Shown here in pieces: positions 29,756 to 33,467 of a DNA stretch of 64,000 bases. Where the stretch lies: the sequence record PQ863256.1, one strand, 5' to 3'. Below the pieces are notes generated by a model. The model ran no database searches and had not been told where the DNA came from. It saw only the letters and a program-made list of their open reading frames with translations. The translations under genes and the position numbers were made by a program. The first letter of the stretch is position 1. Each line of letters starts with the position of its first letter. The DNA comes from Escherichia phage Ptacy1479.

Positions 29756-30412
29756 TTAAATCTCCAATGTTTTCTTCAGAGCTGCCCACGAGATTGGGTA
29801 GATCTTAGTCATCTCTTCGTCTACAGATTTAGCAAACACTCGAACTTCATATTGAGCGTGAGAGGAGAGTCGCTGACGACACAACTCAAACCAGCCATAC
29901 AAAGAACCGGTCCACACCCACTCAGTGATCATCCCCTGAGGAAGAACAAATCGAGCTTGCTCTGGTGCAATAAATTCAATCAACTTGTCATATGCTGCTA
30001 GAGAAGCTTCATATGCATCATTAATCAGCATTAATGCTTCAGCTCGTTCTCCGTCGATGAGTTGAATCCCTGAACCTGCATGGAGGTCCGAAGGTCTCGC
30101 AAAAATCTCTTTAGGGATGAAGACTTCAACTGCTCCATCTTTATACCGCCGGGACATTTCGTTCCACGAGAATCCAACCTGATGCTTGCCCAACTGTCTC
30201 GCAATTGCGATAGGTGCTTTGCATCGGAAACTGACTTGCGGGTGTCGGAATGGGGTAACATGCTTCTCTCTTGCGAGGAAGTTGATGAGACGTTCATCAC
30301 GTTCATTTAAATCACCTTCACGGGTTACGCCAAAGGAAACTCGAGCTGCGTTTACTACGCTACGATCACTTCCCATAGCTTCGATTAATGTTGCTTGTAA
30401 TTGTTCATTCAT
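29756..30412 (-). CDS. thyX: flavin-dependent thymidylate synthase (ThyX-like, divergent)
   Basis: HVTPFRHPQVSFRCKAPIAIARQLGKHQVGFSWNEMSRRY parallels the ThyX core with the RHR triad replaced by KHQ. Confidence 0.55.
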   Translation of the reverse strand: MNEQLQATLIEAMGSDRSVVNAARVSFGVTREGDLNERDERLINFLAREKHVTPFRHPQVSFRCKAPIAIARQLGKHQVGFSWNEMSRRYKDGAVEVFIPKEIFARPSDLHAGSGIQLIDGERAEALMLINDAYEASLAAYDKLIEFIAPEQARFVLPQGMITEWVWTGSLYGWFELCRQRLSSHAQYEVRVFAKSVDEEMTKIYPISWAALKKTLEI

Positions 30413-30427
30413 CCGTGAATTTCCTTA

Positions 30428-30637
30428 TTAATATTCCTTGATTGGGGATACCACAAAACCACCAAGAGGTGAGGTAAAAGATTTATGTAAGCTTATTTTG
30501 CTATAAATCTTTGGAGCCATCTTAAGAGCCTTCTTAAAACGACGAGCATCTTTACGAGTAGCAAAATGCTCTGTAACAGGTATAGAATGGTCTTGGTAGA
30601 TATAATACATCACCGTCCAGTATTTTCCCATAATCAA
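30428..30637 (-). CDS. small protein, member of a ~65 aa paralogue family (TRKxAR..KK ... Y-terminal)
   Basis: Shares TRKDARRFKK and C-terminal Tyr with 32114..32729 triplet. Confidence 0.3.
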   Translation of the reverse strand: MIMGKYWTVMYYIYQDHSIPVTEHFATRKDARRFKKALKMAPKIYSKISLHKSFTSPLGGFVVSPIKEY

Positions 30638-30906
30638 ACACCTAGTGCAGTAGTTAAAAATGCTTTCAGGTTTGCCTCAGTCTGCATACCAGAGAGGCTG
30701 TAGTGTGCGCCACTGTTACGGTCAGGTACGACGAAAGCGGGTATGCTTCGTACACCATATTTAACAGCTTGTTCACGACCATCTCCTTCAAGGATATTGA
30801 TCTCTTCCACTTCTACATCAAACTCCCTAACAACCCTCTCAAAGGTGGGAGCCATTGCTTTACATGGAGCACACTGATCACTATAAAACTTAATTACTTT
30901 AGACAT
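30634..30906 (-). CDS. thioredoxin-like protein
   Basis: CxxC active-site-like FYSDQCAPCK near N-terminus of a 90 aa thioredoxin-fold-sized protein. Confidence 0.6.
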   Translation of the reverse strand: MSKVIKFYSDQCAPCKAMAPTFERVVREFDVEVEEINILEGDGREQAVKYGVRSIPAFVVPDRNSGAHYSLSGMQTEANLKAFLTTALGV

Positions 30907-31155
30907 GTAAATCCTTATGCAGTCAGGAGGTGAAGCAGGAACGGGATAACAACAGCTACGATAACCATGATGGTTGATGCTGTTTGAATCTCACCTTTCT
31001 TATCAGGGGTTTCTTCAATAAGCTTACCAGAAGCCCAATAAATACCACCACCAATAAAGATAGCCCAAATACCCCATACGATTGCTGATAACATATATCT
31101 ATATCCTTATAAATAAGTTCGCCCCACCTCGGGTTAGGAGACAGGGCGGAGGTTT

Positions 31156-31767
31156 TTAGTAAGACACGTCGCCACTTGAATGGGACATGTTGCTCTTGAC
31201 GAAGTAGCAATACTTGCCAAGACCTTCATTAATTTCTTGAAGCATACTCTGATCGACAGGGTAGGATGCTAAATCGCCATCAAACTCATCCATCTTCTCA
31301 ATAATACACATCAAGGTCATGCACATATCAGAGAGCATACCGTCCATGTCTAGATCAGCATTACCCTCTGAAAACCAAGCATGGGAGAGGTAGTTAGCCG
31401 CTGTAGCATCCACCTTAACACAGTGATATCGCATACGTTCAGCAATACGATCTCCTACTTGTCGTGCGTAATCTTCCATCTCATCAAACATACCATGAAC
31501 ACCCTGAAATCCTGCACCAGAGACGTTCCAGTGGTAGTTTTTAGCTTTGATATGCAAGAGTTCCATGTTAGCTTGTAAGCAGCTCAGGATGTGTTCTAGG
31601 CTGTTTCCACTAATCATACCCTGCATTGTTTCAAGGCGAGAGATTGAAAGCTCAGACCGGTCTAACACACTATAGCTGTCACGACCAATCTCAGGTAAAT
31701 CAAAAACATTCTTATGCATTTGGGTTTTCTCCATCAAGTTCAACTGAATTAGCAACATTACGTGCAA
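31156..31767 (-). CDS. Dps/ferritin-like protein (start probably at an internal Met)
   Basis: LHIKAKNYHWNVSGAGFQGVHGMFDEMEDYARQVGDRIAERM resembles the Dps ferroxidase helix pair (HW...H...E..). Confidence 0.45.
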   Translation of the reverse strand: MHVMLLIQLNLMEKTQMHKNVFDLPEIGRDSYSVLDRSELSISRLETMQGMISGNSLEHILSCLQANMELLHIKAKNYHWNVSGAGFQGVHGMFDEMEDYARQVGDRIAERMRYHCVKVDATAANYLSHAWFSEGNADLDMDGMLSDMCMTLMCIIEKMDEFDGDLASYPVDQSMLQEINEGLGKYCYFVKSNMSHSSGDVSY

Positions 31768-32041
31768 TATTATCCATTACCTGCTGGGTAATTACGATGC
31801 AGTTCTGCGGGTCTACTGACTTAGAACGCCCCATTTCAGGGTCATACACCTTAACTCGTTTAGCAGTTGAACCTGTAACCTGAAGAACCTTCAATAGATA
31901 TCCCTGATTACCAATAGACCAAGCAACAACATCACGATTCTTGATAAAGCGACCAAGCATATCACGATGATAAAACTGTTGCATCACCTTGGATTTTGTA
32001 ATCTCTTCAGTGGGCGGGGCCACTTTACTCAAATCTAACAT
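31712..32041 (-). CDS. hypothetical protein
   Basis: 109 aa ORF with promoter-like motif about 40 nt upstream. Confidence 0.35.
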   Translation of the reverse strand: MLDLSKVAPPTEEITKSKVMQQFYHRDMLGRFIKNRDVVAWSIGNQGYLLKVLQVTGSTAKRVKVYDPEMGRSKSVDPQNCIVITQQVMDNIARNVANSVELDGENPNA

Positions 32042-32080
32042 AACTCTCTCCTGTAAAATACAAATTCTTATTGTACTCTA

Positions 32081-32089
32081 TATACATTT
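32081..32089 (-). promoter_or_regulatory. AAATGTATA promoter-like motif (variant of TAATGTATA)
   Basis: - strand AAATGTATATAGAG about 40 nt upstream of ATG 32041. Confidence 0.3.
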
Positions 32090-32113
32090 GAGAGTTACCA
32101 TATCTACTACCAA

Positions 32114-32323
32114 TCAGTAGTAAATTACTTTAGACATAAAAGAACCCGAGCTAGGGTCTTCGTACCAGCGATGAATGTCAGCACTTTTAACAGTTCCTAT
32201 TAGAGCTTTCACATTCTTTTTAGCGACACGAGCCTCTTTGCGAGTGTTAAACAGTTTGATATTATCTTTACCTAAGTGTTGTTTCTGTTCCCAAACAACA
32301 CGAACAGCCCACATCTTTTTCAT
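32114..32323 (-). CDS. small paralogue family protein (69 aa)
   Basis: W.VR...TRKEARVAKK ... YY pattern shared with neighbours. Confidence 0.35.
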   Translation of the reverse strand: MKKMWAVRVVWEQKQHLGKDNIKLFNTRKEARVAKKNVKALIGTVKSADIHRWYEDPSSGSFMSKVIYY

Positions 32324-32532
32324 TAGTAATGTACCTTTCCGCTGATATAAATACGACCAGAGGAATACTCCTTGGCCTTATGGATACTAATGCTCTTAGT
32401 TAAGTCCATATTGAACATAGACTTTTTAAAATCTCGAGCTTGTTGACGGGTGGGCAGTGCAGTCATAGTCATACCACCTGATGCCCACTTAATCTTCGCT
32501 AACCAGAACTGTCTCATGGTGATTGGTCTCAT
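32323..32532 (-). CDS. small paralogue family protein (69 aa)
   Basis: TRQQARDFKK ... HY pattern; start overlaps neighbour stop. Confidence 0.35.
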   Translation of the reverse strand: MRPITMRQFWLAKIKWASGGMTMTALPTRQQARDFKKSMFNMDLTKSISIHKAKEYSSGRIYISGKVHY

Positions 32533-32729
32533 TAATAATAAACCTTACTATTTGCCATAAAAGCACCTTCGCTATTCATGAAAGCTTTACCAATACTAAC
32601 CTTGTTAAGTCTAAAAGTAGACTTGTATTGATTTTTGACCCTACGTGCGTGCTCTCGAGTATTAACAAAATCTACAGCTACCAACTCTCCAGACGTGTTA
32701 TCATGTACACGAACAATCCACTTTTTCAT
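32532..32729 (-). CDS. small paralogue family protein (65 aa)
   Basis: MKKWIVRV...TREHARRVK ... YY pattern. Confidence 0.35.
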   Translation of the reverse strand: MKKWIVRVHDNTSGELVAVDFVNTREHARRVKNQYKSTFRLNKVSIGKAFMNSEGAFMANSKVYY

Positions 32730-32953
32730 TTTACTAAACCCTTCATATAATCATAAAGATCATTAGAGGCTTTACCCCATTCAAGGTGCTTCTTATCCAT
32801 ATAACTCTTACAGGCTTCTTTACTGCTCTCAACGCATATATCAAATTGATGACATGCTCGACCAAAAGTTATAGCTTTTAACTGAACTTCGGTAGTTAAA
32901 CCTTTAAGCTCTTGAAACTCTTCTTCAGTCATTTTACACACCTTTGGATGCAA
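32726..32953 (-). CDS. hypothetical protein
   Basis: 75 aa ORF, overlapping stop/start with neighbours. Confidence 0.3.
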   Translation of the reverse strand: MHPKVCKMTEEEFQELKGLTTEVQLKAITFGRACHQFDICVESSKEACKSYMDKKHLEWGKASNDLYDYMKGLVK

Positions 32954-33467
32954 CTACACCTTCAGAGTTATTATAACGACCCTTCACTGCATAGGAATCA
33001 TCACCAGCGTGAGAGTGTTCAAACATAACCATTTGACCAACACGCATCCCAGCACGAACTCGTAAGCTGTGGTGCTTGGTTACGTTGTGGAATTCAAATG
33101 TCAGCTTACTACTATTAAATCCTGCATCAGCCCAACCGGCATGGAGGTGGTTCAGGCCACAACGAGCCATAGATGAACGCAGAACAAATAGACTTGAGAT
33201 ATTATCTGGAAGATTAAACTCCTCCATAGAGTGAGCCAAGAAGAACTGACCCGGAGTGATAACCAAACCCTCTTCAGGAATCTTTACTTCCTTCCACTGA
33301 AGATTCTCTTTCGCATCAATATCAACGATGCCATCAGCCTGTTCTTCAACAAGGATAGTATCACCAATACGGATATCCACACTAGCAGCGTTAACATACT
33401 TATGCTCCGCATCCAGATAGCCATTGTCAATTACATCATGCAGTTCAATACTTCCTAGTAAACTCAT
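32934..33467 (-). CDS. dCTP deaminase / dUTPase-superfamily enzyme
   Basis: ASVDIRIGD and VLRSSMARCG resemble dCTP deaminase signature segments. Confidence 0.6.
   Translation of the reverse strand: MSLLGSIELHDVIDNGYLDAEHKYVNAASVDIRIGDTILVEEQADGIVDIDAKENLQWKEVKIPEEGLVITPGQFFLAHSMEEFNLPDNISSLFVLRSSMARCGLNHLHAGWADAGFNSSKLTFEFHNVTKHHSLRVRAGMRVGQMVMFEHSHAGDDSYAVKGRYNNSEGVVASKGV

Follow-up and report, generated by a model that had tools for sequence, protein, structure and literature searches.

Does a flavin-dependent thymidylate synthase (ThyX) that lacks the Arg-His-Arg (RHR) triad still make thymidylate? The question is raised by a 64,000-nucleotide stretch of Escherichia phage Ptacy1479 (sequence record PQ863256.1), referred to here as the window, in which positions 29756-33467 were originally predicted to hold a nucleotide-metabolism cluster: ThyX-like, thioredoxin-like, Dps-like, and deoxycytidine triphosphate (dCTP) deaminase-like genes, with the triad of ThyX replaced by Lys-His-Gln (KHQ), a change that might alter substrate or cofactor use. 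A 6.5-kb query around this region matched 98 phage records, the best being Escherichia phage Paul (Kuravirus, Gordonclarkvirinae) at 95.1% nucleotide identity over 100% of the query, and the region is a middle-gene DNA-precursor and replication block conserved in Kuravirus, the phiEco32-like podoviruses of Escherichia coli. We conclude that the variant motif marks no new function—as judged from alignments, KHQ is what a very large, mostly phage-borne ThyX subfamily normally carries—and that the protein is very probably a working thymidylate synthase dependent on flavin adenine dinucleotide (FAD) which, together with the deaminase, would shift deoxycytidine (dC) towards thymidine (dT) nucleotides.

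Motif variation across the ThyX family

Assignment of the phage protein to ThyX is consistent across sequence and structure. It passes the thresholds of both family models, Pfam Thy1 (PF02511; E=1e-43, 149.8 bits against 24.8) and the NCBIfam equivalog TIGR02170 (127.4 bits against 87.9), and matches PDB sequences of ThyX from Thermus (2.9e-31) and Thermotoga maritima (7.6e-25). An AlphaFold2 model was confident (mean predicted local distance difference test score, pLDDT, 94.5), and the top 50 hits of a Foldseek search of the PDB with this model were all ThyX, with a TMq of 0.80 to the T. maritima enzyme. Canonical enzymes (T. maritima TM0449, Thermus Thy1, Mycobacterium tuberculosis ThyX) share the fold of the phage protein at about 33% identity. 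In the HMMER alignment, phage K76-H77-Q78 stands opposite R78-H79-R80 of T. maritima ThyX, which bears out the original prediction of a good match to the ThyX core with a substituted triad. Two further differences accompany the R78-to-K and R80-to-Q changes: one residue is added ahead of the conserved serine (KHQ-x8-S87), and S87-R88-R89-Y90 lies opposite T. maritima S88-G89-R90-Y91, so that G89 is replaced by arginine. The extended motif and the residues of the deoxyuridine monophosphate (dUMP) pocket are otherwise all kept (T. maritima H53, Q75, E86, S88, R90, Y91, R147, and R174), with H57, Q73, E85, R154, and R181 of the phage protein matching H53, Q75, E86, R147, and R174.

Among relatives, the KHQ triad is the rule. 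It was found in 119 of the 120 closest clusters at 90% identity (54-91% identical to the phage protein), the remaining one not matching the search pattern. When 1.84 billion cluster representatives were searched exhaustively with HMMER, 6904 relatives were returned; in the best 150 of these (50%-identity representatives, 39-62% identity), most carry K-H-Q and a single one carries R-H-R, with K-H-K, R-H-T, K-H-T, R-H-Q, K-H-V, and other triads also occurring, nearly all followed by x8 and S-R-R-Y. We quantified this variation in an alignment of 89 subfamily sequences (A1, 38-79% identity), where S87, Y90, E151, R154, and R181 show no variation. Only lysine (72/89) or arginine (17/89) occurs at position 76, position 77 is mostly histidine (79/89; serine in nine, tyrosine in one), and position 78 is variable, with glutamine in 49 sequences and more than eight different residues in the others; arginine occupies position 88 in 84 of the 89 (94%).

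By these comparisons there are two flavours of ThyX—one with the signature R-H-R-x7-S-(G/Q/A)-R-Y and one with (K/R)-(H/Y/S)-x-x8-S-R-R-Y—and the phage protein belongs to the second. Named phages with non-RHR triads, all with S-R-R-Y, include Sinorhizobium phage phiM6 (K-H-S), the N4-like Klebsiella phage P184 (K-H-K), Bacillus phage BSTP5 (K-Y-I), and Streptomyces phage IchabodCrane (K-Y-A), whereas R-H-R with S-(F/A/G/Q)-R-Y is found in Atu_ph07, Thermus phage phiLo, Pseudomonas phage TIVP-H6, cyanophage P-TIM40, mycobacteriophage L5, and Clavibacter phage CMP1. Since relatives that pass the family models show the same departure, the literal motif R-H-R-x7-S (Myllykallio 2002, as quoted in PMC2826268) describes one branch rather than the whole homologous family. 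A different variation was seen in the ThyX of Borrelia burgdorferi lp54 and B. hermsii lp59, which keep R-H-R but read S-G-C-Y and S-G-S-Y, the equivalent of Arg90 being missing.

Evidence bearing on thymidylate synthesis

Genomic settings of the relatives offer a view of what non-RHR enzymes do. In 185,579 species, each represented by a single genome, a scan restricted to the pattern [VIL]ARQL[GVA]KHQ, taken from a narrow alignment (A2), yielded 44 loci with a KHQ-pattern ThyX, a lower bound. Many of these look like phage DNA; several lie in large contigs, one being a complete chromosome. The order of genes around KHQ thyX is kept between species of Spirochaetia (L006/L007), SAR202 Chloroflexota (L012/L013), Poribacteria (L020/L022), and Nitrospinota (L021/L028), and the neighbours there are housekeeping genes, in one set for dihydroorotate dehydrogenase with a short-chain dehydrogenase and an aldo-keto reductase, in others for a 2-oxoacid dehydrogenase E2 with a major facilitator superfamily transporter and for IspH/LytB with an AcrB pump. 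A further non-RHR form, K-Y-V followed by S-R-R-Y, is encoded on Staphylococcus aureus plasmids immediately downstream of dfrE; on NZ_CP113048.1 (L058:2471-3669) the two genes overlap by one base, the last of dfrE being the first of thyX, and the same K-Y-V thyX is present on an Enterococcus faecium plasmid. The dfrE gene encodes a trimethoprim-resistance dihydrofolate reductase (DHFR), and its pairing with a thymidylate synthase gene is a classic one; as ThyX yields tetrahydrofolate (H4folate) rather than dihydrofolate, the plasmid enzyme might itself ease antifolate pressure. The plasmid proteins and those of the chromosomal loci, from metagenome-assembled genomes of the four lineages, share the subfamily signature with the phage protein at 37-47% identity, and sit in housekeeping or antifolate-resistance contexts whereas the phage gene lies in a replication module.

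Additional signs of function come from within the subfamily. One representative of the R-H-T type is fused to a deoxynucleoside monophosphate (dNMP) kinase, and inteins containing HNH or LAGLIDADG domains interrupt six relatives (P0122, P0135, P0188, P0199, P0233, and P0241) after K-H-Q-x-G-F or immediately ahead of either S-R-R-Y or the T-P-F-x-H segment; P0122 and P0188 have the insertion inside the motif, P0199 beside it. Inteins typically target essential active sites. Within kuraviruses, the ratio of nonsynonymous to synonymous polymorphism (pN/pS) of thyX is 0.09-0.11, and the gene is under purifying selection. Taken together, the chromosomal housekeeping contexts, the dfrE pairing, the kinase fusion, the inteins, the low pN/pS, and the confident fold point to ordinary thymidylate synthesis.

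How might the altered triad support this reaction, in which ThyX would convert dUMP, methylene-H4folate, and NADPH to thymidine monophosphate (dTMP)? In solved structures, the RHR triad forms hydrogen bonds to the AMP phosphate, the ribityl chain, and the FMN phosphate of FAD, with the first arginine touching the isoalloxazine (PMC6514825), while R78, R80, S88, and R90 bond to dUMP, and the dUMP-phosphate pocket of PBCV-1 ThyX can accommodate the residue-89 side chain (PMC3498832). In the phage enzyme, Lys76 would preserve the charge of the first arginine, the central histidine is unchanged (His77), and Gln78 could still form hydrogen bonds; the guanidinium lost at position 78 would be replaced by that of Arg88, which stands in the loop lining the dUMP-phosphate pocket at a site occupied by glycine, glutamine, or alanine in RHR enzymes. 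From the correlation between loss of charge at position 78 and the nearly invariant arginine at position 88 (T. maritima 89), read against the published descriptions of other enzymes, we infer a relocation of charge rather than a change of substrate.

The deaminase encoded in the same block would supply the substrate. Matches to PF22769 and TIGR02274 place it in the dCTP deaminase family, S98, S99, R102, and E125 are invariant in a four-way alignment with the E. coli, Bacillus halodurans, and M. tuberculosis enzymes, and the gene is under purifying selection (pN/pS 0.03-0.05). The closest PDB sequences are 4XJC of B. halodurans, at 58 bits, and 2QXX of M. tuberculosis, at 50 bits, against 34 bits for E. 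coli Dcd. The M. tuberculosis (2QXX/2QLP) and Methanocaldococcus jannaschii (1OGH) enzymes are bifunctional and form dUMP (PMC5122711). After an invariant alanine, the phage protein (A110-G111-W112) and the B. halodurans enzyme read A-G-W and the M. tuberculosis enzyme A-G-F, where the monofunctional E. coli Dcd (1XS1) has A-H-R. We take the B. halodurans enzyme to be bifunctional as well, and the A-G-(W/F) segment presumably discriminates the two types. Identity is only 30-31%, with the catalytic Ser, Arg, and Glu shared; by bit score and by the A-G-W segment, the phage deaminase looks more like the bifunctional type and may yield dUMP directly; if not, host Dut would convert its deoxyuridine triphosphate (dUTP) product before ThyX acts. 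Together, the two enzymes would convert excess dC nucleotides to dT to serve a genome of 42% GC. Such a route would suit a phage that reuses the nucleotides of its host, the window being 42.0% GC and E. coli roughly 51%, and we infer that rebalancing of the pool is its rationale. The dTTP supply route of the original prediction (dCTP to dUTP/dUMP to dTMP) fits both family assignments, with both equivalog cutoffs passed and both genes under purifying selection; nothing in the analysis ties thioredoxin or Dps to it.

Several points weigh against thymidylate synthesis as the role of the KHQ enzyme. The phage protein fails the literal R-H-R-x7-S motif, and our search for a ThyX with KHQ or another non-RHR triad and published biochemistry turned up none; L5 gp48 and CMP1 ThyX, which are cited as functional, and the B. 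burgdorferi and B. hermsii enzymes, all considered as possible assayed examples, are RHR-type and provide no direct evidence. Bacteria with a chromosomal KHQ ThyX may still hold thyA or a canonical thyX. The correlation behind Arg88 compensation is phylogenetically confounded, and its basis is sequence and published structures rather than a ligand-bound model. Finally, Gordonclarkvirinae are reported to resist restriction-modification systems to a remarkable degree, although no pathway of DNA modification is known for them (PMC11990801), so that these phages may have some unusual DNA chemistry. Avoidance of recognition sites was considered as the cause of resistance to EcoRV, EcoKI, and EcoP1 and rejected, as the window contains 31, 7, and 92 of their sites, respectively, all about the expected number. 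CCWGG (4 sites against about 72 expected), GATC (148 against about 237), and many GC-rich 6-bp palindromes (13 of them absent) are strongly avoided; strong avoidance of many palindromes and CCWGG suggests DNA that is exposed to restriction rather than globally shielded.

If the triad had been re-tuned—through its contacts to flavin or nucleotide phosphates, or towards release of a 5-hydroxymethyl-type product in place of reduction of the exocyclic methylene—a non-canonical pyrimidine in the DNA could protect it from restriction. Such a reading draws on the fact that canonical R78 and R80 contact both FAD and dUMP, so that the change lies in the active site, on the resistance despite the presence of sites, and on the lack of an assayed KHQ-type enzyme in the literature. 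The family can switch substrate: the 4P5A chain, labelled only "Thymidylate synthase ThyX" in the search, is presumably PolB, the UMP-methylating enzyme of polyoxin biosynthesis. PolB owes its specificity to extra loops rather than to the RHR triad, and the phage protein has no comparable insertions; 4P5A is homologous to it (E=1.3e-15), but true ThyX is far closer (E=1e-31). We regard re-tuning as extremely unlikely: KHQ-type enzymes occur among housekeeping genes in the chromosomes of four phyla, the third motif position varies freely within the subfamily, as would not be expected if it specified new chemistry, and all uracil-recognition and catalytic residues are invariant. Moreover, known thymidine hypermodification starts from hydroxymethylases of the ThyA family, not from ThyX (PMC8989533), phiEco32 DNA has been restriction-profiled and sub-cloned (PMC9965538), site avoidance suggests exposed DNA, and we found no link to base modification in the literature on ThyX with phiEco32 or with hypermodification. 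The suggestion that KHQ alters substrate or cofactor use is thus unsupported.

Loss of catalysis, with the homologue surviving as a structural or regulatory protein, would likewise accommodate the departure from the literal motif, and the E. coli host already has ThyA; given a pN/pS of about 0.1, a catalytic set strictly conserved across hundreds of clusters, inteins in or beside the motif of relatives, and relatives in chromosomes and in a dfr-linked gene pair, its probability is close to negligible. A different role for the block was raised by the BASEL authors, who speculated about uracil-containing DNA in Gordonclarkvirinae from the conserved locus of deaminase and nucleotidyltransferase and the restriction resistance (PMC11990801): the deaminase would flood the cell with dUTP, as in PBS1, and ThyX would be secondary. 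This is very unlikely in our assessment, since about 2.5 kb separates the deaminase gene from a thyX that is conserved and under selection, both on one strand of the same block, which argues for dTMP synthesis, and no gene resembling Ugi or a dUTPase inhibitor is recognisable in annotated relatives, although small open reading frames (ORFs) could hide one. The A-G-W signature, whose discriminating value we presume, is that of dUMP-forming bifunctional enzymes, which release no dUTP. More broadly, it is unlikely that covalent modification of kuravirus DNA explains the resistance with participation of this block, through the deaminase, the nucleotidyltransferase, or, least likely, a KHQ ThyX with a non-methyl C5 product.

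The gene block and its neighbours

All four genes of the predicted cluster were recovered on the minus strand by Pfam, NCBIfam, and PDB matches, and they do lie between two polymerase parts, a polymerase-domain gene and a separate exonuclease gene (Table 1). The label of nucleotide-metabolism cluster needs qualification, as Dps and thioredoxin are strictly not enzymes of nucleotide metabolism. Gene order is identical to that in Paul and in the type phage phiEco32 (gp53-gp75, the block itself being gp64-gp74), for which public annotation lists DNA polymerase (gp53, without 5'-3' and 3'-5' exonuclease domains), thymidylate synthase (gp64), thioredoxin (gp65), a Dps-family DNA-binding protein (gp67), dCTP deaminase (gp72), nucleotidyltransferase (gp73), 3'-5' exonuclease (gp74), and primase/helicase (gp75). 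The block is therefore already known, from the annotation of phiEco32 and about a hundred relatives. Kuraviruses phiEco32, Paul, NJ01, SU10, and 172-1 have the same genes in the same order with the same flanking split polymerase, ThyX is 97.7% identical in amino acids to that of Paul and to that of phiEco32, and nothing of substance differs, isolates varying slightly in their small ORFs and in their content of homing endonucleases. ORFs on the plus strand of the region overlap well-supported minus-strand genes and were treated as spurious.

Table 1. Genes of the block and its flanks, in window coordinates
Feature	Position	Strand	Evidence
Family-A DNA polymerase, polymerase domain only	23436..25280	-	Pfam DNA_pol_A 3.9e-23
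ThyX, flavin-dependent thymidylate synthase, 218 aa	29756..30412	-	Pfam Thy1, TIGR02170, PDB ThyX alignments, AlphaFold2/Foldseek
Small ORF, first phrog_4939 paralogue	30428..30637	-	phrog_4939 8.5e-22
Thioredoxin-fold protein, 90 aa, CAPC	30634..30906	-	Pfam Thioredoxin 1.3e-12, 48 bits vs cutoff 23.5
Small hydrophobic protein, 59 aa	30915..31094	-	phrog_9296 3.6e-34
Dps-family (ferritin-like) protein, 187 aa	31156..31719	-	Pfam Ferritin 4.7e-07, 30.3 vs 24.5 (part of profile covered)
Conserved protein, 109 aa	31712..32041	-	phrog_10984 1.9e-64
Three tandem phrog_4939 paralogues	32114-32323, 32323-32532, 32532-32729	-	phrog_4939 1.8e-26 for 32114-32323
Conserved protein, 75 aa	32726..32953	-	phrog_2347 4e-30
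dCTP deaminase, 177 aa	32934..33467	-	Pfam DCD 3.6e-34; TIGR02274 106.2 vs cutoff 92.8
Gordonclarkvirinae-specific nucleotidyltransferase	33480..34826	-	phrog_12715 3.7e-248; weak Pfam PolyA_pol 5e-4
3'-5' proofreading exonuclease, separate subunit of split DNA polymerase	34828..35382	-	Pfam DNA_pol_A_exo1 1.3e-08; phiEco32 gp74 annotation

The thioredoxin gene product has the active-site motif C12-A-P-C15 but falls below the NCBIfam equivalog cutoffs for TrxA and TrxC; on this evidence it is classed by its thioredoxin fold rather than as an established equivalent of TrxA. The Dps protein matches 36 PDB Dps sequences at E<0.01 (best 4e-9), with residues of ferroxidase type aligned (HWNV...H...DE...D...ER; H63, H75, D78/E79, and E94-type positions), which, as far as homology searches can tell, makes it a genuine Dps-family homologue; it scores below the cutoffs of the NCBIfam Dps equivalogs. 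Its longest ORF starts at TTG 31767 (203 aa) and probably overstates the gene; the start annotated in Paul corresponds to the ATG at 31719 (187 aa). The SU10 orthologues of both proteins have been detected by proteomics (PMC4281155), and we regard thioredoxin and Dps as co-located, conserved genes of the middle or replication module. Eight small ORFs annotated without function are interleaved among the four named genes. Four of them (65-69 aa) appear to be paralogues of phrog_4939, three in tandem, with a shared basic central segment and a C-terminal tyrosine; two of the four were scored, and 32323-32532 and 32532-32729 were assigned by eye from their translations.

The nucleotidyltransferase gene adjoins the four-gene cluster and lies outside it, between the deaminase and exonuclease genes. 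At its head, the product has the motif GGAVRD...DID that typifies CCA-adding enzymes and poly(A) polymerases of class II, and its Ser/Arg-rich tail is probably disordered. All 44 homologues are at least 77% identical and come from this phage group, a profile search of the PDB gave no match, and the AlphaFold2 model (pLDDT 38) was unusable for a fold search. The longest ORF (33480-34883) starts with GTG and would encode 467 aa; the 448-aa product of the ATG at 34826, as annotated in Paul, is probably the correct one.

Two further regions of the window, both on the minus strand, were noted in passing. At 17679-18215, a 178-aa ORF whose sole Pfam match is DUF3310 stands where phiEco32 has gp34, a 297-aa dNMP-kinase-like protein. 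Genes for a gamma-glutamyl cyclotransferase, an ATP-grasp protein, a glutamine amidotransferase, an amidoligase, and a COOH-NH2 ligase occupy 37386-46760, a cluster known from phiEco32 that is another possible source of unusual phage chemistry.

Implications for the ThyX family

For Gordonclarkvirinae, a ThyX kept under selection speaks against uracil-containing DNA as suggested in the literature. What is mildly notable about the Ptacy1479 enzyme is only its membership in a large, apparently uncharacterised branch of non-RHR ThyX. For this very large and mostly viral branch the textbook R-H-R motif fails, with two practical consequences: motif-based filters (for example, that of PMC2826268, at whose limit a two-residue departure sits) may discard real ThyX, and inhibitor design based on the RHR pocket may not transfer to non-RHR enzymes.

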